Shown in pieces: positions 2,052-64,000 of a stretch of DNA of 64,000 nt; the stretch's first letter is position 1; each line of letters opens with the position of its first letter. Source of the DNA: a virus (taxonomy: Duplodnaviria > Heunggongvirae > Uroviricota > Caudoviricetes); IMG/VR virus record IMGVR_UViG_3300028602_000006; one strand, 5' to 3'. The position numbers and the translations under genes were made by a program. Below the pieces are notes generated by a model. The model was given only the letters and a program-made list of their open reading frames with translations, was not told where the DNA came from and ran no database searches.

Positions 2052-2303
2052 ATGCCCAATAATATTAAAGACATTATGGATGAAGAGGGTAAATGGTGCA
2101 GAATAGACGGATGTAACGGGGCAATGGAGTTGCAATGGCCATTCGGAGAAGAATGCACCTGCCATCTTGGACATCCACCATGTCATGCTTGCATTAATAT
2201 GAGGCTTACCTGTACTAAATGCGGGCATGTCATAGAAGACGAGAATTACGAAGACGACGAAGAATATAAGGGAAATGTCTTGACTCATTACATTAATTTA
2301 TGA
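2052..2303 (+). CDS. Small Cys/His-rich (zinc-binding?) hypothetical protein
   Basis: SD-like GGAGATAATAATG. Multiple CxxC/HxxC pairs (CRIDGCNG, CTCHLGHPPCHAC, CTKCGH). Confidence 0.45.
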   Translation: MPNNIKDIMDEEGKWCRIDGCNGAMELQWPFGEECTCHLGHPPCHACINMRLTCTKCGHVIEDENYEDDEEYKGNVLTHYINL

Positions 2304-2306
2304 TAG
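2280..2306 (+). promoter_or_regulatory. Promoter-like motif TTGACT-N13-TATGATAGG
   Basis: Near-identical to the motif at 34-60 (TATGATAGG shared). Lies 11 nt upstream of the small leader ORF at 2317. Confidence 0.4.
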
Positions 2307-2316
2307 GATTTGTTTT

Positions 2317-2424
2317 ATGATGGAAGTACAAAAATATATTAGGGAAAACGGTCTCGATAAACTTCGGGAAGAATTTTCGATAATTGTTACCGATTATCCT
2401 GACCGAATTGGAGCAATATTATGA
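2317..2424 (+). other. 35-aa leader ORF homologous to the N-terminus of the RNA-ligase-like gene at 7102, translationally coupled (ATGA) to the nuclease-helicase gene
   Basis: Hand translation gives MMEVQKYIRENGLDKLREEFSIIVTDYPDRIGAIL. This aligns with MTMHVQKYLREKGLKSLIDEFHIDVREYDDRIV of the 7102 ORF at roughly 60 percent identity. Its stop TGA at 2422-2424 overlaps the ATG at 2421. Confidence 0.5.
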
Positions 2425-4619
2425 ATACTATTAAACTTACGCATCCTTTTATAAATAAATGTCCTGACATTGATGAATTATTCTTCAATAAAGATGGCGA
2501 AGTTGTTTGTACGATTAACGCCTTTTGTGGTAAAATTAAAACTTTGTCAGCAAAGTACTCCGACAGGATGGATGAAAATAAATTCAAAGGTGATGCTTTA
2601 GAGTTGTTTACTGAATTTATGATCCGAACAGCGCCTGAAGACAATCGTATTGGTATTTACAACTACAAACCTATTACTGATGCAGAAGACGATGATGTCG
2701 GCGTTGATGGATTTGGGGCAGGCGAAGATGGAAATCCAGCTACAGTTCAGGTGAAGTACAGGGCCGGTAATTATGTCTTGACAGCAAATGCAGATCACCT
2801 TTCTAATTTTCTTACTGCGTCTTGGAATGACTTCGCAGTTCCTATCAATTCAAAAACAAATATGCTTATTGTCACAACAGGCCAAAAGGTAGATGAAAGA
2901 ACTCGTCAAAAGATGCTCAAAGACAAAGTGAGAGTACTTAACAGAGATTCTTTACGAAGAATGTACGATAATCGTCCTGAATGGTGGAAACGATTTTACG
3001 AATCAGTAAAAAATAACCGTTTTGCTCCTAGCCACAAACGTACCCCCATCGTTTTAAGACAGCATCAAAAAGAAGCAAAAGACGCAATCAAAAATGATAA
3101 AAACGGTAAGGGTAAAGTACTTCTTCCCACTGGAACAGGGAAAACCATAATTGAGGTCCATACAGCAATTGATTCAATCAAAGCGCTAAGGCGTAAAAAA
3201 GTAATCGCCCCCATCATTAAAGTTAATTCGAGTCGTATTCTTCTTTGCTTCCAATTAGCTGATGATTTTATTAAAGAATTCGCTATGGCAAAAATAAATG
3301 CTCGATATGTTAATTTCAATTCGGGCAAAAAAGATGAAACAGAATATGCTGAATTGATGCAACAAGAAGGGTGGGGGTATAGAAAAATTCTATCCACTAC
3401 AAATCCCCAAGAAGTTGCTAAGGTCTATGAGGATTGTAAAAAGAAAAATATGCCTTTGGTTATCTTCAGCACTTATCATTCCTCTGAAAGACTGGCTGAA
3501 AGTGGATTGGTTCCCAATATGACAATTAATGACGAAGCTCATAATCTAGTTTCTAGAAATTTTCATAGGGCCGCTAAATTACCTACTGATAGTAATATCT
3601 TCTTCACTGCGACTGAAAAGGTAACAGATTCCGATGACGGTTTGGGCATGAACAACGAGGACGTGTTTGATAATATAATTTACACAAAATCTGCAAAGGA
3701 ATTGATTGACGCAGGAGAAATGGTTCCTCCTTATCTTCATGTTGTTCGATCTTCTAACGAATGCCGCATTGATACGGATTACGAAATGATGTTTCAATCT
3801 ATCGTAGAAGCATTTAAACATCATGAAAATAAGATAAAAGAAGTGTCTTATGATGCTGAAAATATAGGCGCTAAAGTTCTTGTCGTTTGTAGAGGACAGC
3901 AGGATCTACTTCAGATGTTTAAGACAAAAGCGCTTGAACATTTTAAGACAAATTACCCTGATATCCATCTATTTGCCTTATCTTCTGAATTTGGGATGGT
4001 TAATGATGGAGAGTTCTTTGAACCTCCTGTAACAAATATCAAGAAATATCATATGTTGAAAAAACTTAAAGCTATGGGTCATAACGAGAGGGCTTTGATT
4101 TTTCATGTCGATATGATTGGGGAAGGGATTGATGTCCCCGGTGTTACAGGAATAATGCCATTTAGGAATTGTGAAGAGTCTAAATTAATTCAGAATATTG
4201 GCAGGTCAACTAGACTTCATCCTGAAGATCGTAAGCGTTTTTACAATGAAGAAATTAGCCCTAATGACCGAACAATAGGATGGATTAAACCTTATGCATG
4301 GGTTATCATCCCATCATATATGATCGATTCTGAAGGTATCGAGGCTCGTTTTAGATTTATTATAGATCGTGTCAGAAGAGAGTACGGCTACATCCCTCAA
4401 CAGCATACAGTTATAGATAATGTTGAGGGTTTAAGCGATGAAGACGAAATTGATACTGTCAATAAAATCACTAAGAAAAAGAAACAAGTAAAATCTCATA
4501 TAGAAGAATTCAAACATGAATATGAAAAAGTTTGTGTTATGGAGAAAATTATCATGGAAGATAAGTTGACTCAAAAAGAGAAGGATGTATGGGATGAACT
4601 TAAGGCTATGGGATTGTAA
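2421..4619 (+). CDS. PD-(D/E)xK-like nuclease domain fused to SF2 (DEAH) helicase; restriction-enzyme-like motor subunit
   Basis: N-terminal GVDGFG...VQVKY (D...QxK variant of PD-(D/E)xK). Helicase motifs I LLPTGTGKT, II NDEAHN, III FFTAT, and a QNIGRSTR arginine finger. Confidence 0.7.
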   Translation: MNTIKLTHPFINKCPDIDELFFNKDGEVVCTINAFCGKIKTLSAKYSDRMDENKFKGDALELFTEFMIRTAPEDNRIGIYNYKPITDAEDDDVGVDGFGAGEDGNPATVQVKYRAGNYVLTANADHLSNFLTASWNDFAVPINSKTNMLIVTTGQKVDERTRQKMLKDKVRVLNRDSLRRMYDNRPEWWKRFYESVKNNRFAPSHKRTPIVLRQHQKEAKDAIKNDKNGKGKVLLPTGTGKTIIEVHTAIDSIKALRRKKVIAPIIKVNSSRILLCFQLADDFIKEFAMAKINARYVNFNSGKKDETEYAELMQQEGWGYRKILSTTNPQEVAKVYEDCKKKNMPLVIFSTYHSSERLAESGLVPNMTINDEAHNLVSRNFHRAAKLPTDSNIFFTATEKVTDSDDGLGMNNEDVFDNIIYTKSAKELIDAGEMVPPYLHVVRSSNECRIDTDYEMMFQSIVEAFKHHENKIKEVSYDAENIGAKVLVVCRGQQDLLQMFKTKALEHFKTNYPDIHLFALSSEFGMVNDGEFFEPPVTNIKKYHMLKKLKAMGHNERALIFHVDMIGEGIDVPGVTGIMPFRNCEESKLIQNIGRSTRLHPEDRKRFYNEEISPNDRTIGWIKPYAWVIIPSYMIDSEGIEARFRFIIDRVRREYGYIPQQHTVIDNVEGLSDEDEIDTVNKITKKKKQVKSHIEEFKHEYEKVCVMEKIIMEDKLTQKEKDVWDELKAMGL

Positions 4620-4684
4620 ATATTATTGACATTGCTTGTCGGATATGTTAATCTTTTCATATCTTAAATGGTAAAGGATATTTA

Positions 4685-5881
4685 ATGAGTCAAGAAAAAA
4701 TATTGGATGCTCAAGCTGTTAGAAGTGTTTATGAGAAGTTTTCTATAGATTTGCCAAATATAGGCAATCTACAGAACGTTTTTACTCCTTATTCGCTTTG
4801 CAAGGATATGATTGGACGCCTGAAGAAGTATAAGAGGAAGTTTGAAGGAGCGAACTTCTCTGTTTTTAATCTTGAATTTGCTGAAGTTTTAATGTATGAT
4901 TATGGAGTTAAGGCAAATCAGATTTGGTTCTTTACTGATTGTGTTGAGAAGAGCAAATTCGCTCAGTTGAATAGGTATGCGGGGTTGAATGTCGAATTGG
5001 TTAATTTAAGCCGATTCTTACGGGAGAAGATTACTATGAAATTTGATGTTGTTATTATGAATCCGCCTTATCAGGCCCCTAAAGCCAAAGAGCACGAAGG
5101 GAGAGGAAAATGTGGAACATCGCTGTGGGAAGATTTTGTTAGGAAATCCTTTGAATTGGCGAAAGATGATGGATATGTTTGTGCTATTCACCCTAATAGG
5201 TGGAGAAGACCCGAGGGCAAAATTGGCGAATTAATTAAGTCAAAACAAATTCATTATCTTGAAATGCATGGACTGGAAGACGGAAGGAAAACATTTTCTT
5301 GCCAAACCGATTATGATTGGTATATTGCTCAAAACAAAAAATCAGAGACCAATACGCAAGTTGTAGACTATGATGGTGAATCAAATTCAATTGATTTGAA
5401 AAACGCTCCTTTCATTCCCAACTCCAATGTGAAAGATGTTTTGTCTCTCGTCGCAAAAGAAGGAGAAGAAAAAGTCAATTTGTTATGGAACTGTGAATAT
5501 CATACTCAAGCAAGAGCAAAAGACGGAACGATGTCACCAATACAAACCGATGAATTTAAATACCCTTGTGTTTATTCTGTAACAATCAAAGGAGAAGTTA
5601 AGTTTTGGTACTCAAGCAAAAAAGAACAATTTTTTGGAATTCCTAAGGTCATATGTTGCAATGGTCATACTATGCCAATTGTTGACAAAAATGGGGAGTA
5701 CGGATTAACTCAATTCGCATTTGGAATAGCTGATAAAAAAACAAATTTAGAAAAAATACAAAATGTTATGAATTCTGATGAATTCAGGAAAACAATAATG
5801 GGTTATAGAGATAATGGTGGCAATGTTTATGACAAGAACATGATAGCAACTTTCCGCAAAGATTTTTGGAACGAAATATGA
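4685..5881 (+). CDS. N6-adenine DNA methyltransferase (NPPY) with C-terminal putative target-recognition region
   Basis: VVIMNPPYQAP is a motif IV. Upstream NVFTPYSLCKDMI is a motif X-like element. No clear FxGxG motif I in this ORF. Confidence 0.6.
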   Translation: MSQEKILDAQAVRSVYEKFSIDLPNIGNLQNVFTPYSLCKDMIGRLKKYKRKFEGANFSVFNLEFAEVLMYDYGVKANQIWFFTDCVEKSKFAQLNRYAGLNVELVNLSRFLREKITMKFDVVIMNPPYQAPKAKEHEGRGKCGTSLWEDFVRKSFELAKDDGYVCAIHPNRWRRPEGKIGELIKSKQIHYLEMHGLEDGRKTFSCQTDYDWYIAQNKKSETNTQVVDYDGESNSIDLKNAPFIPNSNVKDVLSLVAKEGEEKVNLLWNCEYHTQARAKDGTMSPIQTDEFKYPCVYSVTIKGEVKFWYSSKKEQFFGIPKVICCNGHTMPIVDKNGEYGLTQFAFGIADKKTNLEKIQNVMNSDEFRKTIMGYRDNGGNVYDKNMIATFRKDFWNEI

Positions 5882-6453
5882 AAACCACCACAAAAACTTG
5901 TACCAAACGCCAAAATCGAAAAAAACAAACTGCTGAGGATTTTACTCCGGCATGGTTGGTTAATCAAATGCTCGACAAGTTAAATGAATATGGAAAAGAA
6001 TCATGGGAAGAAGGGAAAACTTTTCTTGATCCTGCTTGCGGGAATGGAAATATGCTCGTATGTGTTTTGAAGCGTAAAATAAAACTAGGACATGATCCAT
6101 CAGAGGCATTGAAAACTATCTATGGAACCGACATAATGGATGATAATATCAAAGAGTGTCGCTTAAGGCTCCTTAAAATTATTCAAGAAGAAGGAATTAA
6201 AATAACACTTGAGCACATTAAATCTGTGTTTAATAATATTATTGTAACGAGATTGAGTAGATACAAAAGTGGATCTCTTGACTATAATTTCAAATTCAAA
6301 AACAAAGCATCGCATAAAGATGTTATTAAGTGGTTAGACGGAATACAGAACCACAACTGGCTTGAGTTAGTGGGACACGAAAACATTAATGCCATCATAA
6401 AAAATGACGTTGAAGCTAGTTTTGTTGAAGAGAAATTTGCCGCATTCTTTTAA
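5866..6453 (+). CDS. Methyltransferase N-terminal-like fragment (motif X + motif I + post-I, no NPPY)
   Basis: FTPAWLVNQML, LDPACGNGNMLV (FxGxG-type) and IYGTDIMDD. Overlaps the previous ORF by 16 nt in another frame. Confidence 0.45.
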   Translation: MERNMKTTTKTCTKRQNRKKQTAEDFTPAWLVNQMLDKLNEYGKESWEEGKTFLDPACGNGNMLVCVLKRKIKLGHDPSEALKTIYGTDIMDDNIKECRLRLLKIIQEEGIKITLEHIKSVFNNIIVTRLSRYKSGSLDYNFKFKNKASHKDVIKWLDGIQNHNWLELVGHENINAIIKNDVEASFVEEKFAAFF

Positions 6454-8601: not shown

Positions 8602-9411
8602 TTGAAAGGAATAAATATGAAGATACATTTGTTGACGATTGATCCTCAGCGAGATTTCTGTAGTCCAAACGGCGCTCTTTTTGTTCAGGATGCAGATCAA
8701 GACATGATTCGTTTAGCGGCAATGGTTGACCGTTTGCGCAATAAAATTGATGATATCCACGTTACGCTGGATAGCCACAATGAAGTAGACATTGCTCACC
8801 CTATATTCTGGATTGATTCTAACGGAGCGCATCCTAATCCCTTTACTATTATTACAGAAGAGGATGTTGTCAAGGGTGTATGGACAACTACTAGGCCAAC
8901 ATGCCGCCAGCGAGCAGTTGATTATGTTAAAGCCTTAGCTTCCAACGGGCGCTACCCTCTTTGTATTTGGCCTCCTCACTGTATTATCGGTACAGAAGGA
9001 TGGACAATTCAGCAGCCTCTTGCTGACTCATTGTCAAATTGGTGCAAAGATCGCTTTAAGAAAGTAGATTATCAGGTTAAGGGTTCAAACGTATTTACTG
9101 AGCACTATAGCGTTTTCAGGGCAGATGTAATAGATCCGTCTGATCCATCAACGATGTTAAACACTGATCTCATTAAGGTTATTTCTGAAGCTGACGAAAT
9201 TTTGATCGCTGGCGAAGCAAGAAGCCATTGTGTCAATCATAGTTTTCGTGATCTTATCGGGGAACTTGGCAAGGAACACGCTCAGAAGTTCATTCTTCTT
9301 GAGGACGCTATGAGTGATGTAACGGGATTCGAAAATCTTGGAAAACAGTTTTTCGATGATATGATAGCTCTCGGCGTAAAATCAACCACAACTAAAGATT
9401 ATCTTGCATAA
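8602..9411 (+). CDS. Isochorismatase-family cysteine hydrolase (nicotinamidase PncA-like)
   Basis: N-terminal LLTIDPQRDFC (Asp of the D-K-C triad) and C-terminal GEARSHCVNHS (catalytic Cys context). Confidence 0.5.
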   Translation: MKGINMKIHLLTIDPQRDFCSPNGALFVQDADQDMIRLAAMVDRLRNKIDDIHVTLDSHNEVDIAHPIFWIDSNGAHPNPFTIITEEDVVKGVWTTTRPTCRQRAVDYVKALASNGRYPLCIWPPHCIIGTEGWTIQQPLADSLSNWCKDRFKKVDYQVKGSNVFTEHYSVFRADVIDPSDPSTMLNTDLIKVISEADEILIAGEARSHCVNHSFRDLIGELGKEHAQKFILLEDAMSDVTGFENLGKQFFDDMIALGVKSTTTKDYLA

Positions 9412-47501: not shown

Positions 47502-48731
47502 CTACCCAGACACTAAAGATGTCTGGGTTTCGTGACTCGCAGGCTCGTCTAACGACAACGCCTCCTCACGTTTTTGTTTTGATTCCGACTGTATTCCACA
47601 ACCAGAATTGTAAATCATTAATCCTTGACTGAGGGCTTCGCCTGCAAGTCTCAGCCCTTGCTCCAATATATTTTTTGAAGCATTGATGTCTCTATCTAGT
47701 TTAGCACCACAAACAGGACAAACCCATTTTCTATCTTTCAATGTCAAATCCTGATTAACAAACTTACACTTGTTACAGGTTTTGCTTGAAGGGAAGAACT
47801 TATCTATTTGAATTAGGTTTCGTTCATTCCATTCCGATTTATACTTCAGTTGTCTTAGGAATTCGCTCCAAGAACAATCTGAAATACTTTTTGCTAGGTT
47901 ATGGTTTTTCATCATATTTGCAACAGATAAGTCCTCAACACAGATCGTTTGATTCTCACGAACTATTTGAGTTGTTATGTTATGGATATGATTTAGCCTA
48001 CTGTTTGTGATTTTCTCATGAACTCTAGCAACTTTGATTCGTTGTCTATTCCTACTACTTGATCCTTTTTGTTTTTTACTGAGTTGTTTCTGCTCATAAG
48101 AAAGTTTTTTAGCATACTTATTAGTAGTTTTTATGTTCTCATAGATTTTGCCATCAGAACATATTGCTAAATCTTTAATTCCTAAATCAACTCCTACTTG
48201 ATTTTTGTTCTTTTTATATGGAGCGTGTTCGGTTTCACAGGTAATAGAAACAAAATACTTACCTGATGGATTTTTGGAAATGGTTGAAAAGAGTATTGTT
48301 CCTTCAAGTGGTCTATCCTCTTTTACCTTGATGGGTTGTTTGAATTTAGGTATCTCTAGTTTCCCATTCTCATACTTAGTTGATTGAGGAATACGAAATG
48401 ATTGTTTGTCTTTCTTGGATTTGAATCGTGGGAACTTACCTTGTTTTGAAAAGAATCGGTTGTAAGCTACTTCTAAGTCTCTTAATGAAGCTTGAACTGA
48501 CTGAGAGTTAGTTTCTTTAAGCCAACTATATTCGTCTTGTTTCTTTAGCTTAGTGAGAGAGGATGCATTGTCATAATAGTTTAAAGAAGTGTTGTTTTCA
48601 AGATAGGCGTTTTTTCGTTCATTAAGAAAATGGTTCCATACAAATCTTTTAGCCCCGAAGTGTTTAGCCAATAGGACTTCTTGATCCTTAGTTGGGTATA
48701 TTCGATATTTAAATGACTTCTTTATTTTCAT
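47502..48731 (-). CDS. tnpB: TnpB (IS200/IS605-family OrfB, RuvC-like plus zinc finger)
   Basis: C-terminal CNKCKFVNQD...WVCPVCGAKLDRDINASKNI. The 3' end overlaps the perfect hairpin CCCAGACA-CTAAAGA-TGTCTGGG (47505-47527). No adjacent tnpA. Confidence 0.75.
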   Translation of the reverse strand: MKIKKSFKYRIYPTKDQEVLLAKHFGAKRFVWNHFLNERKNAYLENNTSLNYYDNASSLTKLKKQDEYSWLKETNSQSVQASLRDLEVAYNRFFSKQGKFPRFKSKKDKQSFRIPQSTKYENGKLEIPKFKQPIKVKEDRPLEGTILFSTISKNPSGKYFVSITCETEHAPYKKNKNQVGVDLGIKDLAICSDGKIYENIKTTNKYAKKLSYEQKQLSKKQKGSSSRNRQRIKVARVHEKITNSRLNHIHNITTQIVRENQTICVEDLSVANMMKNHNLAKSISDCSWSEFLRQLKYKSEWNERNLIQIDKFFPSSKTCNKCKFVNQDLTLKDRKWVCPVCGAKLDRDINASKNILEQGLRLAGEALSQGLMIYNSGCGIQSESKQKREEALSLDEPASHETQTSLVSG

Positions 48732-48734
48732 GTG

Positions 48735-49202
48735 TTATTTATAATTTTTATCCAAAATAGATACATTTTTACCACTAAATACGCAACATGTTAGTATCCC
48801 GCTTTCTAATATCTTTACACCATCATATTTATGAATATCTTGAATGACATTGTTTATAACCCAACTTGTGCTAACATCATCTATATCTGGTCTAGATAGC
48901 AATTGCGTTTCGACATTAGAATCGTTAAATTTTATCCCGATGTCAGAAAATAGGAATTCAATGTCTCCGTCATCTATATTTATTGTATCATCCATATCAT
49001 ACGCTGTTAAATCTAAGTAGTTAGAGGCGGATAATCTCACGGTATATAGGACGTTTGCCTTTTTGCCTTCTGTAGACCAACTAATATAGTCAGATGCCAT
49101 ATTTTTATCACTAGTAAACCAACTGTAATCATTAAATTGATCAAAATCTTTTACTGATCCATGATACCATAACTCGGCAGATGCTATTTTATATATTCTC
49201 AT
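48735..49202 (-). CDS. Hypothetical protein directly upstream of the solo tnpB
   Basis: Same strand as tnpB, 3-nt gap. No HuH motif, so not TnpA. Confidence 0.4.
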   Translation of the reverse strand: MRIYKIASAELWYHGSVKDFDQFNDYSWFTSDKNMASDYISWSTEGKKANVLYTVRLSASNYLDLTAYDMDDTINIDDGDIEFLFSDIGIKFNDSNVETQLLSRPDIDDVSTSWVINNVIQDIHKYDGVKILESGILTCCVFSGKNVSILDKNYK

Positions 49203-55798: not shown

Positions 55799-56212
55799 AT
55801 GGAGCTAAAAAATCCGAATAGAATATTTCATGAAGAAAAAAAATATGTGTACTCTTGCCAGTATCATGTAATCTTTTGCCCAAAGTACCGAAGAAGTGTA
55901 CTAATAAATGGAATAGAGAAAAGGTTGAAGGAACTTATCCATGAGAAGCAAAAGGAATATAACTATGAAGTAATAGACATAGAAGTAATGCCAAACCATG
56001 TGCATCTTCTATTAGATATAAATCCTAAAATGGGGATATGGTCTATTATTAGCAAAATTAAAGGATATACATCTAACACACTTCGTAAAGAATTTCCTGT
56101 TCTAAGATCTAGATTACCTACACTATGGTCTGGTTCAAAATTTATCGGTACAGTCGGATCTATATCACTAGATGTTATCAAAAAATATATTGAGGAACAA
56201 AAGAACAAATGA
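55799..56212 (+). CDS. tnpA: IS200-type Y1 HuH transposase TnpA
   Basis: CQYHVIFCPKYRRSVL, HuH MPNHVHLLL, catalytic Tyr region KGYTSNTL. 137 aa. Confidence 0.85.
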   Translation: MELKNPNRIFHEEKKYVYSCQYHVIFCPKYRRSVLINGIEKRLKELIHEKQKEYNYEVIDIEVMPNHVHLLLDINPKMGIWSIISKIKGYTSNTLRKEFPVLRSRLPTLWSGSKFIGTVGSISLDVIKKYIEEQKNK

Positions 56213-57282
56213 TCCTAACTTATAGAATTAAGCACGATAGAGACTTTAGTTCAGAGCTTAGTAAGGCATTGAAAATCGCTAAGTTCGCTATTCGTACTAA
56301 ATCTCGTTCAAGTAAAGATGTAAGTTTTTTTGGTCTTAAATCAATAATATCTAACCAAATACTTAAAAAATATGCAGGCCAAAAGAACTGTAAATTAATT
56401 CACTCAGTGAAACTAACAATCCCAAATCAGGGTATTAATGTAGATCAAGAAGAGCGCATCGTCAATATTCCATGTATAAAGCTGAAACTACAATACCACT
56501 TCCCAAATAACTTCAATAAAGTCAATCAAATAGAAATAGATAATAAGTATTGTTATATATCATGCCAATTCCCCGATAAACCTGAAATCGAAATAGAAAA
56601 CTACATTGGTTTAGATAGAAATACCACTGGGCATATAGCGGTGGGAGCTATTGTCTCTACAGGTAAGGTTTATAAGTTGGGAAAGAAAGCTTATCATACT
56701 CACCGTAAGTACAAAAAAATTCGAGCACATCTACAAGAGAAAGGCGCTAAGAAAAAACTAAAAAGAATAAGAAAACGAGAGAAAAATATTATCAAAGATA
56801 TTAATCATAAAACTTCTAGAAAGATCGTTGAAATAGCTAAAGATAATAAATGCGGAATAGCTTTAGAGGATTTAAAAGGAATAAGAAAAGGCAAAAGAAG
56901 TAATAAGATAAACAAAACAGGAGAAAGTTTCAAGTCTTCCATAAATAGTTGGGAATTCTATCAATTACAGACTATGATAGAATACAAAGCCAAAATATGT
57001 GGGATACCTTTAGTATATGTTGATCCCAAATACACATCTCAAAAATGTAGTAAATGCGGACTCATTGCTAAGAATAATAGGAAACAAAAAAAGTATACAT
57101 GCACCGAATGCGGTCATGTTGATCATGCGGATGCTAATGCTGCTTTTAATATTTCAGCATTGGCATTTCAAAGAAAATCAATGAGCAATGATCAATCCAT
57201 AGCAGACAGGGATGTTATGGAAGGGAGCACTGATACCCCGCAGTTGGAAACACAACACGAGCTTATAGCGAGTGTTGCTTAA
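56209..57282 (+). CDS. tnpB: TnpB (OrfB) RNA-guided nuclease-family protein
   Basis: Overlaps tnpA by 4 nt. C-terminal CSKCGLIAKNN...YTCTECGHVDHADANAAFNI zinc finger and RuvC-III. Confidence 0.8.
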   Translation: MILTYRIKHDRDFSSELSKALKIAKFAIRTKSRSSKDVSFFGLKSIISNQILKKYAGQKNCKLIHSVKLTIPNQGINVDQEERIVNIPCIKLKLQYHFPNNFNKVNQIEIDNKYCYISCQFPDKPEIEIENYIGLDRNTTGHIAVGAIVSTGKVYKLGKKAYHTHRKYKKIRAHLQEKGAKKKLKRIRKREKNIIKDINHKTSRKIVEIAKDNKCGIALEDLKGIRKGKRSNKINKTGESFKSSINSWEFYQLQTMIEYKAKICGIPLVYVDPKYTSQKCSKCGLIAKNNRKQKKYTCTECGHVDHADANAAFNISALAFQRKSMSNDQSIADRDVMEGSTDTPQLETQHELIASVA

Positions 57283-57656: not shown

Positions 57657-57799
57657 GAGAGAGTTGATTGAGAGAGTTGATATGGATTAGTATCTGGCGT
57701 GAGATTTAGGAAGTAAAAAACGAAAAAAACTCTTGAAAAGGCAATAATAATTTGTAGAATACAGAGCGATTAACGTCCTAAATGGAATAGGAGAATAAT

Positions 57800-59085: not shown

Positions 59086-59825
59086 TTATGATATGGCAAT
59101 TAACTTATAAGATAAAAACGGTTGATAAAGCGACTTGTAATTGTAATGTTCTTATTGAGACGCATGAGAAAAATAATAGTCAACATGTAACGAATCTTTT
59201 TTGGCATGGGATTGGGGAATATGTTAGTAATATGCGCCTTAAATTGATAGAGATTATTGATATTGAATGTTTAGGGGTAGTAAGCATAAAAGATGTAGAG
59301 TAATAAGTATTTATCTTTAGGAGGTAATTTTGGGGAAAGGAGCATTATTTTTTAAAGTTACGGGATCTAATCCATCTGATTATGCGGTATACAAGATAAT
59401 TAATTCTATTAGCGGGCGGCGTATTTATATATCTGAGGGGGAGACATGGGATAGGGGGAATAGATGGAACAGGCCCGGCAGGAATAATCGATGGCCATTA
59501 ACTTGGTATTATCCTGATCCTCGGAGTCAAAAAATAGAATATTTAAATGATTTTGATATATTGGATTAAATAATATATTGGAATAGAATATTTTTATGGA
59601 TTAAACGTCTTATTTCATTTTAGAATATAATTAATATCTTTGATGGGGGAGTTCTGACTATTATTTCGAATTAATTAAATTTATATTAAATATTTAGCCT
59701 CATTTACTTTAAAAGGGTATTTAACCGTTGACCTCAAACCTACAAAATCCTACAAACAACTAAAAAATACTTTTATTTAAATAGAGGATTTTTCTGTATA
59801 ATATAGAATAAAAGGAGTATGAAAA

Positions 59826-60065
59826 ATGAAATCATCAAAATTTGCAAGGATAATGAAAGATATGGAAAATAAAAATCATAAGGTCGTTAGAGTCTCTAAA
59901 ACAGAATTTGAACTAGATACGGGAGACATTTACCCAATCCCGTTTGATTTGGGATATGAACCAACGCTAGAAGAATTCCAAAAATTTATAAATGATTCCA
60001 AGTCGCTTATATCTGAATTCATTAAAAAGTCAGAAAAGGAGAAGCGAAATGCTAGAAAAAGATAA
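59826..60065 (+). CDS. Hypothetical protein
   Basis: SD AAAGGAGTATGAAAAATG. Confidence 0.4.
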   Translation: MKSSKFARIMKDMENKNHKVVRVSKTEFELDTGDIYPIPFDLGYEPTLEEFQKFINDSKSLISEFIKKSEKEKRNARKR

Positions 60066-60735
60066 ACTCCTTAGTATGGCAGAAACTTGTTCTCTTCTCA
60101 ATGTATCCCAAGAAACCTTAAGGAATTGGGATGCTGATGGAACTCTAAAGCCAGTTAGAACAAAAGGTGGTCATCGTAGGTATAAGCAGAGCGATATTAA
60201 TTCTTACATGGGAATTAAAGAAGAAGAAATCAATAGGAATCTTCTTCCTGTTGCGACTTATGCTAGAGTGAGTAGTCATGAACAGAAACAAAAAGGCGAT
60301 TTAGATAGACAAAGCCAAAGATTGTCTGAATACTGTGCCAAAAAGAAGTATAGAGTTGAACACATTATTAAGGATGTCGGTTCAGGTCTATCGGACACAA
60401 GAAGTGGATTTAATAAATTATTTGACCTTGTAATCCAGAAAAAAGTATCTAAAGTAATTGTAGAGCATAAAGATAGATTGACTCGTTTCCAATTTAATGT
60501 ATTAGTAAGATTTTTTGAGAGTTATGGTGTTGACATAGAGAAGGTTGAGTCTACGTCTTCTAATGATGAAGAGGAATTAGTTCAAGATATTATGATGCTT
60601 ATGGCTGTTTTCTCAGGGCGACTTTACGGCAAAAGGTCAGCAAAACGAAGAAAAGAGAAAAAATTGCAGAAAGAGCTTGACTTACTCAATGGTTCTGGTA
60701 TGATGACGCCAACAGTTGAGAAAGGAATAGAATGA
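60049..60735 (+). CDS. IS607-type serine recombinase (MerR-like HTH + resolvase catalytic domain)
   Basis: N-terminal HTH LSMAETCSLLNVSQETLRNWDADG. Catalytic YARVSSHEQ, DVGSGLSD, RLTR. Start set at the ATG with SD AAAAGGAGAAGCGAAATG. Confidence 0.7.
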   Translation: MLEKDKLLSMAETCSLLNVSQETLRNWDADGTLKPVRTKGGHRRYKQSDINSYMGIKEEEINRNLLPVATYARVSSHEQKQKGDLDRQSQRLSEYCAKKKYRVEHIIKDVGSGLSDTRSGFNKLFDLVIQKKVSKVIVEHKDRLTRFQFNVLVRFFESYGVDIEKVESTSSNDEEELVQDIMMLMAVFSGRLYGKRSAKRRKEKKLQKELDLLNGSGMMTPTVEKGIE

Positions 60736-61424
60736 AAAACGATAACCAATTAGACAATGATATGTTGGCAACTTCGATAACCCATCCAAGAAATATTGCG
60801 GTTAAATGTTGGGATGTGCTTTTAGAGAAGTGTAGTTCATTGTCTTGTTTTGCGTCCAGAATAGAAAAACAGGCTGGAATTATAGAAAAATCAGAAAAAG
60901 TTGATTTCTTTGATAAATATGGCGAGGATGGAGCCAATTCTTTCAAAGGTGATGTAACAGAGGTTTTTGCAGAATATGTCCTTAAAGGATATGGAAGAAC
61001 ATGGGGAATTTATAACTATGTTCCATTCTTTTCTGTTTGTGGGGAAGATCAAGATGTGGGAGTGGACGGAACAGGCAAGACAAAAGACGGAAGAGTTATT
61101 ACGGTTCAGGTTAAATATGGCAACTGGTCAACTGCCCTTGATCATATTAAAAGAAAATTAAGAACCTTCCATTGGACTTCAATTTCGAAATATGGAGTTG
61201 GAACCACAAGTAGAGATCAAATGTTTGTCTTTACCTTGGCTCACGATATAAATTGGATGACTTTAGGTGGACATTTTCATGGGAGATTGAAATTCATAGC
61301 CCAAGAAGAGTCTGGCGGAATTTATCTTCCAAATAACGATCCAACAGAAGTTTGTTCTTTGAAGTCTGTCTGTGGCAATAATCCTACGTTTTGGAAAACA
61401 TTTTGCGAAATGGTGAAATCATGA
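60732..61424 (+). CDS. PD-(D/E)xK-like nuclease domain protein (paralog of the N-terminus of 2421-4619)
   Basis: QDVGVDGTGKTKDGRVITVQVKY parallels DDVGVDGFGAGEDGNPATVQVKY. ATGA overlap with the recombinase gene. Confidence 0.6.
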   Translation: MKNDNQLDNDMLATSITHPRNIAVKCWDVLLEKCSSLSCFASRIEKQAGIIEKSEKVDFFDKYGEDGANSFKGDVTEVFAEYVLKGYGRTWGIYNYVPFFSVCGEDQDVGVDGTGKTKDGRVITVQVKYGNWSTALDHIKRKLRTFHWTSISKYGVGTTSRDQMFVFTLAHDINWMTLGGHFHGRLKFIAQEESGGIYLPNNDPTEVCSLKSVCGNNPTFWKTFCEMVKS

Positions 61425-63781
61425 AAACAAATCATATATTCAAATTCAAAATTCTTAATGGAAGCGTCTCTAATGCTGGTAATTTGATGCCTTCTGATTT
61501 GTCCTTTGACGGATTTGGACAAAATCTTAGGAAACTTTCACTAGAAAGTAAAACTGCTAAAGACTTTATTGAGAGTGGCTTTCAGTCTTTTGTGGAAGCA
61601 TTGATACTTTATTTTGGAGATAAAATCGGTATCAGTGATTACGAAAATATTAATTCGATTAATCATAAATATAAGGCTCATGGTCTTGGCAAGAGAAATG
61701 GCAAGGTTGTAACTGCTTTCTTCGCCTTTAATGGCAAAGAGTTCATGACAGATGGCAACAGTCAACTTACTGAATATTTTTCTCAATCATGCTATCTTGA
61801 CGGATTTGATTTGTCTGCCGATGAAAAGGTATTCAATATATTTTCTGATTCTGTTGCGATTCATGAAAACACTATAAAGAACTTTGTTTTGCCAGAGAAA
61901 ACAAAATTTTATGGAATTAATGAAATCAAGTCTTTGGTTGATGGCAATATCGGTTTCTGGAAGGCATATAGGGAATCTTTGGAAAATGCCGTCAATGAAG
62001 TTTTATCATGTTCAATGGATTTTGTTCCAGACGCATACCAAGTGGAAGCAATAGATAGGCTATTGGCTATTCGTACAACAGAGTTTATTTCTGGTCAAAA
62101 GATGGAAAGCGAAATAATAAATGAAGTTTGTTTAGATAAGCCTCGATTCAAAATCTCCAACAATAAGATAATTACATTCTATAGACATGAAAAATTAATC
62201 ATTGAAATAGATATGTCTCATAAGAGAGCACAGGTAATATGGCCCACTGGAACGGGAAAAAATGAAATTATGATGGAATTTTCAATACGATTGGCTAAAC
62301 TGCTTAGATCGCAAGGGATGTCAGTTAAAATATTATTCATATCTCCTCGTATTAATTTAGGAGTGCAAGGAATTAGAAAAATTGTCAATAGGCTCAAGCA
62401 GTATGATGCTGATAATGAAGTTGAAATAGTTAATTTTTCGTCAGGAGGCTACGATAATGATAGCCTCGCAAAACTTGATTGCAATATTGATGGAGTAACC
62501 AGCACAACGTCGGTGAATGTTCTCAAAGACATTATCAATAGGTCAAATGGTTGTACTTTTGTTTTCTCCACATATAATTCAGTTGATAAGATTATTGATG
62601 CTGGTATTAAATTTGATCTTATAAATTGTGACGAAGCTCATAATATTGTTAAGGGGAAAAGCATTCCGCAAAAAAGTAGAGAGGCTGTTATTTCTGAACA
62701 GGCTAGACGCCTTTCTCCTTTTACTGTATTTTATACTGCCACACAAGCTCTAACTGGGACTCCAGATGCCCCTATAGAAGATGGGAAAGGAATGGATAAC
62801 CCATCATTATTCGGAGAAGTTATTTCCCGAAAGACTCCCAAGGAAATGATAGAATGTGGAAAAATTGTCCGTCCTCTTTTGTGCCATTTGTCGATTACAA
62901 AAGCTATTTTAAGAAAGCACGTTGACATCTCTTCTGCAACGCAGGAAGAAATAACTAAAAATGCGGAACTTAATGCTTATATAATATGGGAATCTTATTT
63001 AGAAATTGAGAGAATCAACCAAAGACATTCCTTAAATAGTGACCAAAATTGCATCAAAATGTTGGTTAAGTGTCCGGGAGGTAAATCATATTCTGAAATA
63101 ATAAAATCAAAAACATTTCAGCAATATAGCAAGAAATTTCCTAGTGTTGGAATATATGGAATTTCTAGCGATTGGGGTAATTGGATAGACGGAATAAGAT
63201 ATGAATCAAATTCTAAATCAGAAAATCTATTCTTAGACACGTTAAGGGACAAAAAATCAGATGAAAAAGCAATCATTCTTCACATAGCGAAAGTAGGTGA
63301 AGGATGGGATGTACCGGGAATTAATGCTATTCTTCCCTTTGGCGACATGAGCGATATTACTTCAAGTCAGGCTTTGGGTAGGGGAATGAGACTTCATCCT
63401 TTTGATAGAGAAAGATTGTCTAAGAGCTTGATAGTCCCTTCGGATTGCTATAAAGGGAAGTTCTATAAGCCATTCTGTTATGTTATTATGCCAAAATATT
63501 GTGGATTTAGCGATATTAACAGAAACAATATTGAGAGAATGGTGGATCAGATTCAGTCCGATATTGGGTATTGTCCTTATGAGATATTCAATGAGGAGAC
63601 CTATGATGGCAAGATGATTACTGTTCCACCGCCTAGAATTGAAAAGACCTATACTGTTCCTGAAGAGATTGAGCATGAATTTAGTATTATTCTTTCAATT
63701 GAGGAAAGAAAAAAGCAAGAAGAGTTTAGGAAACAAGTGGATAGCGAGAAAGAGGCGTTGCGAAAGGAATTTGCGTTATGA
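61391..63781 (+). CDS. SF2 DEAH-type helicase (paralog of the C-terminal part of 2421-4619), Walker A variant GKN
   Basis: WPTGTGKN, NCDEAHN, FYTATQ and GEGWDVPG...QALGRGMR. Overlaps the nuclease-domain ORF by 34 nt in another frame. Confidence 0.65.
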   Translation: MENILRNGEIMKTNHIFKFKILNGSVSNAGNLMPSDLSFDGFGQNLRKLSLESKTAKDFIESGFQSFVEALILYFGDKIGISDYENINSINHKYKAHGLGKRNGKVVTAFFAFNGKEFMTDGNSQLTEYFSQSCYLDGFDLSADEKVFNIFSDSVAIHENTIKNFVLPEKTKFYGINEIKSLVDGNIGFWKAYRESLENAVNEVLSCSMDFVPDAYQVEAIDRLLAIRTTEFISGQKMESEIINEVCLDKPRFKISNNKIITFYRHEKLIIEIDMSHKRAQVIWPTGTGKNEIMMEFSIRLAKLLRSQGMSVKILFISPRINLGVQGIRKIVNRLKQYDADNEVEIVNFSSGGYDNDSLAKLDCNIDGVTSTTSVNVLKDIINRSNGCTFVFSTYNSVDKIIDAGIKFDLINCDEAHNIVKGKSIPQKSREAVISEQARRLSPFTVFYTATQALTGTPDAPIEDGKGMDNPSLFGEVISRKTPKEMIECGKIVRPLLCHLSITKAILRKHVDISSATQEEITKNAELNAYIIWESYLEIERINQRHSLNSDQNCIKMLVKCPGGKSYSEIIKSKTFQQYSKKFPSVGIYGISSDWGNWIDGIRYESNSKSENLFLDTLRDKKSDEKAIILHIAKVGEGWDVPGINAILPFGDMSDITSSQALGRGMRLHPFDRERLSKSLIVPSDCYKGKFYKPFCYVIMPKYCGFSDINRNNIERMVDQIQSDIGYCPYEIFNEETYDGKMITVPPPRIEKTYTVPEEIEHEFSIILSIEERKKQEEFRKQVDSEKEALRKEFAL

Positions 63782-64000
63782 TTCTGTCAGCAAAACAATT
63801 GGCTCTTAGAGAGTATTATCAAGAAGTATTCAAGGAGTGGGAAACTCTTGATAATAACTTGCAGAATGTTTTTACGCCTTATGATCTTTGTGAGAAAATG
63901 ATAGATAAGGTTTGCAAGTATTGTGAACTAAAGGGCAAAAAGATATTGGTTACGAATTTGGAATTTGCTATAGTTCTTGTTGAAAGAGGGATTGATCCTA
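63779..64000 (+). CDS. Methyltransferase paralog (5' part; continues beyond window)
   Basis: LQNVFTPYDLCEKMI...NLEFAIVLVERG parallels LQNVFTPYSLCKDMI...NLEFAEVLMYDYG of 4685. ATGA overlap with the helicase gene. Confidence 0.5.

Follow-up and report, generated by a model that had tools for sequence, protein, structure and literature searches.

A putative Type ISP-like restriction-modification module between tnpA and tnpB of an IS607-type element in a large phage

Introduction

Elements of the IS200/IS605 and IS607 types are generally portrayed as minimal, consisting of a transposase and TnpB alone. Rare cargo, including "an ATP-dependent RNA helicase", is mentioned without characterization for one serine-recombinase branch of TnpB (PMC10691335), and we found no description of restriction-modification (R-M) cargo in IS607 elements in the literature consulted. 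Here we analyze a 64,000-nucleotide (nt) stretch of DNA from a tailed phage (Caudoviricetes; IMG/VR record IMGVR_UViG_3300028602_000006), hereinafter the window, at whose right end a serine recombinase gene is followed by nuclease, helicase and methyltransferase (MTase) genes. With a probability of roughly 0.7, we posit that these genes are the left two-thirds of a 6.94-kb IS607-type transposon residing in a large phage, in which an R-M-like module with the character of Type ISP enzymes lies as cargo between tnpA and tnpB and is moved with them as a unit.

Experiments on IS607 elements have established a strict GG core dinucleotide and a TGGG target that doubles as the target-adjacent motif of TnpB, with a guide-RNA scaffold that finishes in ..UCGG and a C at position -3 that blocks self-targeting (bioRxiv 10.1101/2023.11.20.567912); further IS607 TnpBs use the motifs GAGGG or AGGAG (PMC11061315). 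On the side of the cargo, the Mrr motif of LlaGI (D74-x-G-V77-D78 ... Q92-x-K94) has been found to be essential by mutagenesis (PMC2790908). Finally, a site-specific nuclease of a phage, as in the T-even gene islands of Seg and Mob with their co-converted neighbors, could carry linked genes into co-infecting phages by break repair (review PMC13565253).

Results

The contig and the genes of the element

The window constitutes the first 64 kb of the metagenomic contig k141_2398814 (ENA ERZ27250894; 182,571 bp), with identical coordinates, and the DNA past its end was taken from the same contig fetched around the nuclease gene (L001). The contig is phage-like: its genes lie nearly all on one strand, small unannotated open reading frames (ORFs) are numerous, a clamp loader and a polymerase are among its PHROG matches, and the nearest relatives of the genes studied here are on IMG/VR viral contigs. 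A megablast search of positions 59800-64000 against deposited phages gave no match. Despite this phage-like content, NCBI labels the proteins of the contig as those of a Synergistaceae bacterium metagenome-assembled genome, a label that could stem from a binning error or could point to the host.

The element runs in the order orfX, tnpA, Mrr nuclease, superfamily 2 (SF2) motor with a dead nuclease domain, MTase1, MTase2, tnpB, guide-RNA scaffold and right end (Table 1), and each of its gene junctions is an overlap or a 1-nt gap. The tnpA/nuclease, nuclease/helicase and helicase/MTase1 junctions are all ATGA overlaps, in keeping with the tight coupling from the recombinase onward that a first-pass annotation of the window had described, save that two starts are corrected. 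The helicase likely starts at ATG 61421, overlapping the nuclease stop, rather than at TTG 61391, a mechanical ORF start, because its relatives share the MKTNH start that is encoded from 61421 on; for the methylase ORF the start is 63778 (not 63779), with another ATGA overlap.

The recombinase, TnpA, scores 204 bits against the NCBIfam model "IS607 family transposase" (NF033518; cut-off 110), with an HTH_17/MerR helix-turn-helix (HTH) at residues 7-54 and a Pfam Resolvase domain at residues 69-207 (E 5e-22). The first-pass call of an IS607-type enzyme is thus upheld against that of another phage integrase or resolvase family, and the module does occur in other phages without the recombinase (see below). 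The same annotation had set the module against TnpB, the usual partner of such recombinases: the module indeed follows the recombinase, but tnpB is also present, beginning about 1.5 kb past the window end, downstream of tnpA and in the same orientation. Its product matches Pfam Cas12f1-like_TNB (E 1.3e-16) and OrfB_IS605, and contains the strings IGIDTG, VVEGL and DNADINAS along with two CxxC pairs; we tentatively take the former to bear the RuvC acidic residues and the latter to form the zinc finger. The product of orfX is without a Pfam or PHROG match, and homologous small ORFs precede tnpA in two canonical relatives (L045 and L005) as well as in L061 and L080. Certain TnpB relatives (L047-L049) are solo tnpB genes and were set aside as uninformative about cargo.

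Ends of the element and its presence in a second phage

The same unit is found in a 186-kb IMG/VR contig, UViG_3300029286_002355 (L003; hereinafter UViG_2355), with TnpA, the nuclease and TnpB each being 97% identical to their counterparts in the window element. In the DNA alignment of the two, homology begins on the left at ..GGGT, followed by four variable bases and then AACCGTTGA, about 107 nt upstream of orfX, and stops on the right at ..AAAGGAACGG before a T, i.e., at ..TTTGTAGGTTTAAAGGAACGG and then T, past which point the sequences are unrelated. Neither flank of the UViG_2355 copy (about 9.7 kb on the left and 13 kb on the right) resembles the first 71 kb of our contig by blastn or tblastx.

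These boundaries recur in other contexts. Five independent left junctions, those of the window, UViG_2355, L045, L005 and L080, read [A/G]GGG then T, while an exact search of metagenomes with the right-end 21-mer recovered 22 loci with 21 different downstream sequences, every one starting with T (..AACGG then T). The canonical relatives L045 and L005 have the same left flank (GGGT) and right end (AACGG then T) as the window element. The ends also carry inverted repeats, ACCGTT-N6-AAACCTACAAAA on the left (L001 8993-9016) and ACCGTT-N5-AAACCTACAAAA on the opposite strand on the right, with a second CCTACAAA sitting in the left end. Because the left [A/G]GGG, the right ACGG and the GG core common to both junctions match the published IS607 pattern, we assign the element a span of about 59718 to 66654, i.e., 6.94 kb. 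Ahead of the right end lies a conserved stem with nine compensated pairs across five sequences, which overlaps the tnpB coding DNA and is consistent with a guide-RNA scaffold. Comparison of the two copies shows a transfer of the whole unit between unrelated phages. The earlier proposal that the module is recombinase-mobilized cargo accordingly stands, as a second phage has the same unit amid unrelated flanking DNA, bounded by IS607 ends.

The tnpA-tnpB interval as a cargo slot

Here, four passenger genes amounting to 4.7 kb separate tnpA from tnpB. Relatives show the same interval in other states. In L045, orfX and tnpA are followed by an overlapping tnpB (82% identical) without cargo, and in L005 the order is orfX, tnpA, 312 nt and tnpB. 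L067 has a TnpA and a TnpB that are 99% and 96% identical to those of the window element, with the cassette being absent: it aligns as two abutting blocks, contig positions 60003-60730 and 65447-66655, amounting to a clean 4,716-bp deletion. It retains 72 nt before tnpB that encode ..IKKIKDGKLLDGLKIE, the C-terminal tail of MTase2. As this tail is also native to the MTase2 of cassettes without IS607 genes (L054 and L058), L067 derives by deletion from an element that carried cargo.

With other siblings, the homology breaks off near position 60680 and picks up again precisely at the start codon of tnpB, with different genes in between. The sibling L061 (TnpA 90% and TnpB 88% identical) has in its slot (2180-3809) a 333-residue N6_N4 DNA methylase (E 1.6e-37) with an overlapping 211-residue ORF; the latter has no family match, and the two could constitute a small Type II R-M pair. 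The slot is occupied by four small ORFs in L078, by single ORFs in each of L080 and L062, and by a 139-residue ORF in L046. Comparison of these loci shows that the tnpA-tnpB interval holds passenger genes, that the cargo can be deleted, and that siblings fill the interval with other genes.

The tnpA/nuclease (60722-60738) and MTase2/tnpB (65505-65521) junctions of the window element share the string AATAGAATGAAAA, of which 11 nt are shared in the UViG_2355 copy, the junction identity AATAGAATGAA(AA) thus being 11-13 nt. This string may be a trace of cassette capture, or it may merely reflect similar overlap signals; since both junctions are ATGA overlaps in AT-rich DNA, its reading as a capture scar is unproven. 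Extending these observations, one can tentatively propose that in a phage-borne IS607 subfamily the tnpA-tnpB interval is a general slot that shuttles methylase and restriction modules among unrelated large phages, with TnpB, through guided cuts at empty sites, acting as a gene drive at co-infection and the cargo penalizing genomes that lack the element, though we lean against this broader form of the idea.

A predicted motor with a dead nuclease domain and a predicted active nuclease in trans

The module in the slot has a paralog near the start of the window. As proposed in the first-pass annotation, the nuclease and the helicase encoded at 60732-61424 and 61421-63781 correspond to the two halves of the protein encoded at 2421-4619: the nuclease aligns to its residues 53-198 with 30% identity (E 2e-19), and the helicase to its residues 230-661 with 28% identity (E 3e-49). 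The parallel drawn between the ORF at the window end and the MTase gene at 4685 likewise holds, with 44% identity over the 74 residues encoded within the window (E 7e-12) and 40% over the full length (E 1e-87). Since the two MTase2 proteins are also paralogous (50% identity, E 5e-42), as are the MTase1 proteins, the paralogy extends to the entire cassette beyond the nuclease and helicase. The copy at 2421-6453 (copy 1) is the resident, fused version of the same system in this phage; hereinafter, the IS-borne cassette is copy 2.

The stand-alone nuclease of copy 2 (PHROG 7683) displays the motif D-V-G-V-D, 14 residues, Q-V-K, which is that of LlaGI including the 14-residue spacing. The Mrr signature D-x-G-h-D...Q-x-K is present with identical spacing in both the stand-alone nuclease and the copy 1 fusion and is absent from the N-terminal domain of the copy 2 helicase. 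In a family alignment, the N-terminal domain of the fused lineage (copy 1 and P0014-P0019) carries D-x-G-V-D-G ... T-V-Q-V-K, while the copy 2 lineage (P0001-P0012) keeps the full domain with KAHG in place of DxGVDG and AFFAF in place of TVQVK. Profile-profile comparison of these helicase N-terminal domains with the active nuclease domains gave a probability of 97.2% (E 2.8e-11) over 187 columns. An intact nuclease gene lies upstream of the helicase in L003, L036, L038, L041, L052, L054 and L058. The arrangement is accordingly a genuine and conserved multi-subunit design, in which the motor bears a dead nuclease domain and a separate gene would provide the active nuclease in trans.

The AlphaFold model of the copy 2 helicase (pLDDT 76, pTM 0.71) has as its best solved match the Type ISP enzyme LlaBIII (4xqk; E 6e-17, 749 columns), covering both the nuclease fold and the motor, followed by RadD and the HsdR of EcoR124I. 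NCBIfam has no model for the nuclease or the helicase, and a search of PDB sequences with the helicase gave only generic SF2 matches around motif I.

The Walker A motif of the copy 2 motor, P-T-G-T-G-K-N, confirms the GKN noted earlier, with the Asn encoded by AAT at 62261-62263. This variant does not stand alone: within the split lineage, the window copy and four relatives that are 59-86% identical to it (P0001, P0002, P0004 and P0006) have N after GK, while P0007 has S, P0008 and P0012 have T, P0009 and P0010 have F, and P0011 has G; in the fused lineage, the residue is always T. A glutamate always comes after the variable residue in the split lineage, where the Walker lysine, DEAH, motif III (TAT) and motif VI (QxxGRxxR) are invariant. 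This pattern suggests that the constraint on the magnesium-binding hydroxyl has eased in the very lineage whose nuclease residues are gone. The motor also shows a 48-residue insertion between the Q motif and Walker A (62072-62215, residues ~218-265), which is present only in the window copy and P0001 (86% identical) and is modeled by AlphaFold with low confidence; compared with the UViG_2355 copy, which is nearly identical elsewhere, the surrounding motor region has been swapped.

The methylase pair

MTase1 possesses an Eco57I domain with NPPY, and belongs to a family of 786 relatives. Across 55 aligned members, the family keeps NPPY, the TP of motif X and the aspartate of motif II. The AlphaFold model of the resident MTase1 (pLDDT 92.7) matches CamA, M.BseCI and M.TaqI over both domains; a sequence search of PDB with MTase1 returned nothing meaningful. 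In MTase2, motifs X, I and II are perfect and NPPY is absent. P0149, a fused protein, is similar to MTase2 over residues 833-916 (37% identity) and to MTase1 over residues 946-995 (46%); the single-chain relatives (see below) have one methylase domain with an MTase2-like first half and an MTase1-like second half.

The cassette outside IS607 elements

A word-indexed protein search recovered 25 relatives of the helicase, and an exhaustive profile search 570 cluster representatives at E <= 1e-30. Among 185,579 reference genomes of bacteria and archaea, the scan for the family gave a single weak match, implying that the family is essentially borne by phages and metagenomic sequences. A search of proteins from phage records found only distant, helicase-only relatives in cyanophages, and PADLOC gave only weak generic matches, so the module is no catalogued defense system.

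The order nuclease (228-244 residues), helicase, MTase1 and MTase2 is found without IS607 genes in L036, L038/L039, L041, L054-L057 and L058/L059; in L052, the nuclease and helicase are likewise seen without an IS607 gene before the contig ends. Downstream of the cassette in L054 lie isochorismatase-like and PP2C genes, and genes of these kinds also follow copy 1, at 8602 and 11310. The resident locus of this phage group can therefore hold either version. A copy 1-like arrangement, with a fused nuclease-helicase, MTase1 and a nearby MTase2, is seen in L040. Further, the helicase family includes single-chain nuclease-helicase-methylase fusions of 1228-1458 residues (N6_Mtase/Eco57I; P0149, P0150, P0160, P0171 and P0191), of which P0149 combines an intact Mrr motif with GTGKT, DEAH, a canonical methylase motif I and NPPY. 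The existence of such fusions suggests that motor and methylase are functionally linked. Separately, a 205-residue tyrosine recombinase with a Phage_integrase domain lies directly upstream of the cassette in L058 (449-1066) and L059 (316-933), and given this adjacency a second kind of recombinase is associated with the module.

Features and neighboring elements

Table 1. Coordinates of the IS607-type element and of the resident copy of the module, in contig (window) numbering
Feature	Position	Strand	Remarks
GGG	59715..59717	+	target and TnpB target-adjacent motif directly left of the element; last two G are the GG core common to the right end
IS607 left end	59718..59825	+	homology with UViG_2355 begins here
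Terminal inverted repeat ACCGTT	59724-59729	+	within the left end
Two CCTACAAA subterminal repeats	59739-59746 and 59749-59756	+	within the left end
orfX, 79 residues	59826..60065	+	accessory gene of the IS607 subfamily; 17-nt overlap with tnpA
tnpA, IS607-family serine recombinase	60049..60735	+	MerR-like HTH followed by the catalytic domain (YARVSS...)
Cargo gene 1, stand-alone Mrr-family PD-(D/E)xK nuclease, 230 residues	60732..61424	+	catalytic motif intact
Helicase N-terminal domain, degenerate nuclease copy	61421..62050	+	from alignments and profile-profile comparison
Cargo gene 2, SF2 (DEAH) helicase-like motor, 786 residues	61421..63781	+	Pfam ResIII (E 6e-12) and DEAD domains
Cargo gene 3, MTase1, 395 residues	63778-64965 (window holds 63778..64000)	+	gamma-class N6-adenine, Eco57I-type, with target-recognition domain
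MTase2, 183 residues	64967-65518, beyond the window	+	from the contig continuation (L001)
tnpB, 362 residues	65515-66603, beyond the window	+	ATGA overlap with MTase2
Right end with candidate guide-RNA scaffold	finishes ...GGAACGG at 66654, beyond the window	+	boundary set by 21 different flanks
Resident fused Mrr nuclease and SF2 helicase	2421..4619	+	Walker A GTGKT; PHROG 7683 and PHROG 16
Resident MTase1, 398 residues	4685..5881	+	NPPY present, motif I non-canonical; Eco57I, E 1.8e-13
Resident MTase2, 195 residues	5866..6453	+	N-terminal half of a methyltransferase only (motifs X, I and II, without NPPY); N6_Mtase at positions 19-110

Just outside the right end of the element lies a repeat array (L001 16000-16400; contig 66731-67131) with six irregularly spaced copies of TCTGGCGTG[G/A]G. 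Two of these adjoin minus-strand promoters of perfect or near-perfect sigma-70 consensus (TTGACA-17-TATAAT, TG-extended), which point back into the element, antisense to tnpB, and one more copy of the repeat is found at 57693-57703, after an IS605 TnpB region. The TCTGGCGTGGG repeat array was considered as a set of right-end TnpA-binding sites and rejected, since it lies outside the block shared with UViG_2355. In the latter (L003 17121-17720), the right end abuts a peptide deformylase-like ORF with the motif QHEMDHL, of which approximately the first 16 codons (MMKNNDTDFCRFKGTV) come from the IS607 right end; the insertion may have replaced or provided the start of this gene.

The window also harbors other TnpB-bearing elements. 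An IS200/IS605-type element at 55799-57282, 2.4 kb upstream of the IS607 left end, encodes a 137-residue Y1 transposase (Y1_Tnp, E 4e-39) overlapping a 357-residue TnpB. A third TnpB of 409 residues (47502-49202, minus strand) runs opposite to nearly all genes, and shows HTH_OrfB_IS605, OrfB_IS605 and Cas12f1-like_TNB domains (PHROG 506, E 1e-134); an adjoining 155-residue ORF gives a weak match to an ADP-ribosyltransferase (ART-PolyVal). There are thus three tnpB genes in 20 kb of one phage genome.

Discussion

Weighing the readings

Could tnpA and tnpB flank the cassette by chance, as the outcome of two insertions or of modular phage recombination, with no transposable unit? Neither an empty site nor a circular junction was recovered, and the interior of the block shared by the two copies is a mosaic, being 55-81% identical compared with 92-97% at its ends. 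However, the shared block ends exactly at the IS607 ends, with inverted repeats, GG core and G-rich motif; the same ends are used by cargo-free relatives at 21 sites; TnpA and TnpB of this type are adjacent in L045, L005 and L067; and the flanks of the two copies are unrelated, all of which makes a chance association very improbable. The first-pass annotation had further wondered whether the separate nuclease and helicase ORFs are a frameshift or a genuine two-subunit arrangement. An error of sequencing or assembly in one fused gene might be suspected from the overlap of the ORFs and from the fused state of the first copy, but the helicase ORF has a complete nuclease-like domain of its own, such that the joined ORFs would hold two, and the arrangement is seen in at least seven independent assemblies. 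We give this explanation practically no credence: a frameshift at 61391-61424 is ruled out by the same two-gene junction in L003, L036, L038, L041, L052, L054 and L058, which come from different samples. A simple split of the fused gene fails as well, the helicase having kept a dead nuclease domain, and of the earlier alternatives a genuine multi-subunit arrangement is what stands.

The nature of the cargo leaves more latitude. The nuclease and helicase might serve phage DNA metabolism (repair, recombination or the breakdown of host DNA) or act against host defenses, with the methylases being orphans that shield phage DNA from restriction by the host and the linkage a matter of co-regulation. 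The near-confinement of the helicase family to phage-like metagenomic contigs would fit this, as would the helicase-only relatives in T4-like cyanophages (in at least one of which, S-CAM7, the gene lies beside a Dmt methylase), the repair helicase RadD among the top structural matches, the degenerate Walker A, and the size of the MTase1 family (786), far above the 25 helicase relatives of the word-indexed search, which implies that many MTase1 members may be orphans. Nevertheless, we find such a cargo unlikely in light of the gene order being strictly conserved in each context examined, the single-chain nuclease-motor-methylase fusions in the same family, the top structural match spanning both the nuclease and the motor of a Type ISP enzyme, and the Mrr restriction-type motif of the nuclease. 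A related alternative takes the IS-borne helicase for a non-catalytic scaffold that recruits the separate nuclease to methylase-bound sites with no translocation. The N, F or G after GK in most of the split lineage, as opposed to the invariant T of the fused lineage, and the disappearance of the N-terminal nuclease motif from all split-lineage members would be in accord with it. Yet the invariance of DEAH, TAT, QxxGRxxR and the Walker lysine argues for nucleotide binding and hydrolysis, and S or T persists in P0007, P0008 and P0012; on balance, we regard a pure scaffold as unlikely.

Several observations weigh against an IS607-type transposon with Type ISP-like R-M cargo, our preferred reading. 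On the side of mobility, the expected empty insertion site (..TTTAAAAGGG joined to TAATGGGGCT) was not found in viral and metagenome contigs, nor was the expected circle junction (..GGAACGG joined to TATTTAACCGTT), so transposition is a deduction from comparison only; a search for an uninterrupted locus through relatives of the gene in the downstream flank gave only distant partial matches. The guide-RNA fold draws on five sequences that overlap coding DNA, and an Rfam scan across the element at E <= 1 returned nothing, including the guide-RNA family RAGATH-18. The lower identity within the mosaic interior falls on the helicase motor region and MTase1: the UViG_2355 helicase is identical at both ends and about 60% identical over the motor region, with a 48-residue indel, and that copy holds an additional 246-residue ORF between MTase1 and MTase2. 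Since the motor region is swapped while the helicase ends are identical, the cargo itself recombines with other alleles. On the side of function, the biochemistry of the cargo is a prediction from domain content, fold and fusions, and the distribution of the helicase family is not that of a typical cellular defense system. With a Walker A that lacks the canonical Thr or Ser (N here, F and G in relatives), the motor may be incapable of ATP hydrolysis. The MTase1 family has v-F-N-L-E-F in place of the glycine-rich motif I in its 55 aligned members, and the role of MTase2 is unexplained by a Type ISP-like reading.

A possible mechanism and its implications

By analogy with published IS607 biology, TnpA would excise the unit as a circle and insert it at a GG core beside [A/G]GGG. 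A guide RNA transcribed across the right end (expected guide TAATGGGGCTATTATT.., target TAATGGGGCTATTATTTTGT, motif RGGG) would direct TnpB to cut vacated or empty sites, whereby the element and its cargo would be restored or copied into co-infecting genomes. Domains, folds and fusions suggest in turn that MTase1, either alone or together with MTase2, would methylate adenines within a specific sequence, that the motor subunit would translocate on unmarked DNA, and that the separate Mrr nuclease would cut instead of the inactivated domain of the motor. More speculatively, the likely targets would be host DNA or competing phages, and there could be a synergy between TnpB homing and the cargo.

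A well-delimited IS607 element in which several genes, 4.7 kb in all, occupy a defined internal position departs from the minimal picture of these elements, and the comparisons directly support inter-phage transfer, loss of cargo by deletion and different cargo in siblings. It offers a testable system for asking if TnpA can move kilobase-scale passengers and if TnpB homing spreads such passengers between co-infecting phages. It further exposes a little-known, almost exclusively phage-borne Type ISP-related family in fused, two-part and three-part forms, in which the retention of a dead nuclease domain alongside an active one in trans amounts to a natural experiment in the assembly of such machines. 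If the tentative idea of a cargo slot coupled to a gene drive were true, this would be a natural RNA-guided transposon spreading genes of inter-phage warfare.

Comparison with known systems

With the described IS607 elements (Helicobacter pylori IS607, CboIStron and ISFba1), the element shares a MerR-like HTH serine recombinase, a TnpB with Cas12f1-like_TNB, the GG core at both ends, a G-rich target motif on the left, a right end in ..CGG, subterminal repeats and the lack of a target duplication. It differs in having tnpA and tnpB parted by 4.7 kb of passengers, while these are adjacent or overlapping in canonical elements, and in having an additional orfX before tnpA, a large-phage replicon and no RAGATH-18 match. 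The cassette-bearing element is thus a variant of the known IS607 type, whose internal slot houses a sizeable set of passenger genes of coherent function. Like it, the homing-endonuclease islands of T-even phages (Seg and Mob) encode a nuclease that could spread linked genes by break repair; in the present case, however, the nuclease is the predicted RNA-guided TnpB, the ends are discrete transposon ends, the recombinase is the element's own and the linked genes lie inside the element.

As for the cargo, the Type I system EcoR124I shares with it an N-terminal PD-(D/E)xK nuclease followed by an SF2 motor, as in HsdR, and a separate methylase. However, no HsdS-like gene is present in any cassette examined, target recognition seemingly lies inside MTase1 with its M.TaqI-like two-domain fold, and the nuclease is of the Mrr type (Q-x-K). 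In the Res subunit of Type III systems the helicase is N-terminal and the nuclease C-terminal, whereas the nuclease domain here is N-terminal, and models of that kind give only weak local matches. The closest likeness is to Type ISP enzymes such as LlaBIII, with the shared order of Mrr nuclease, SF2 motor, gamma-class N6-adenine methyltransferase and target-recognition domain. In contrast to these, the cassette has three to four polypeptides, a dead nuclease domain on the copy 2 motor with a free-standing nuclease added, GKN in Walker A, a non-canonical methylase motif I and a half-methylase in MTase2; it is encoded by phages rather than plasmids or chromosomes, and its sequence identity to LlaBIII is about 15%. 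Because it is not a single polypeptide, we leave it out of Type ISP proper; the most fitting description is that of a Type ISP-like system, made up of three polypeptides in copy 1 and four in copy 2, whose architecture is new among enzymes of this kind.

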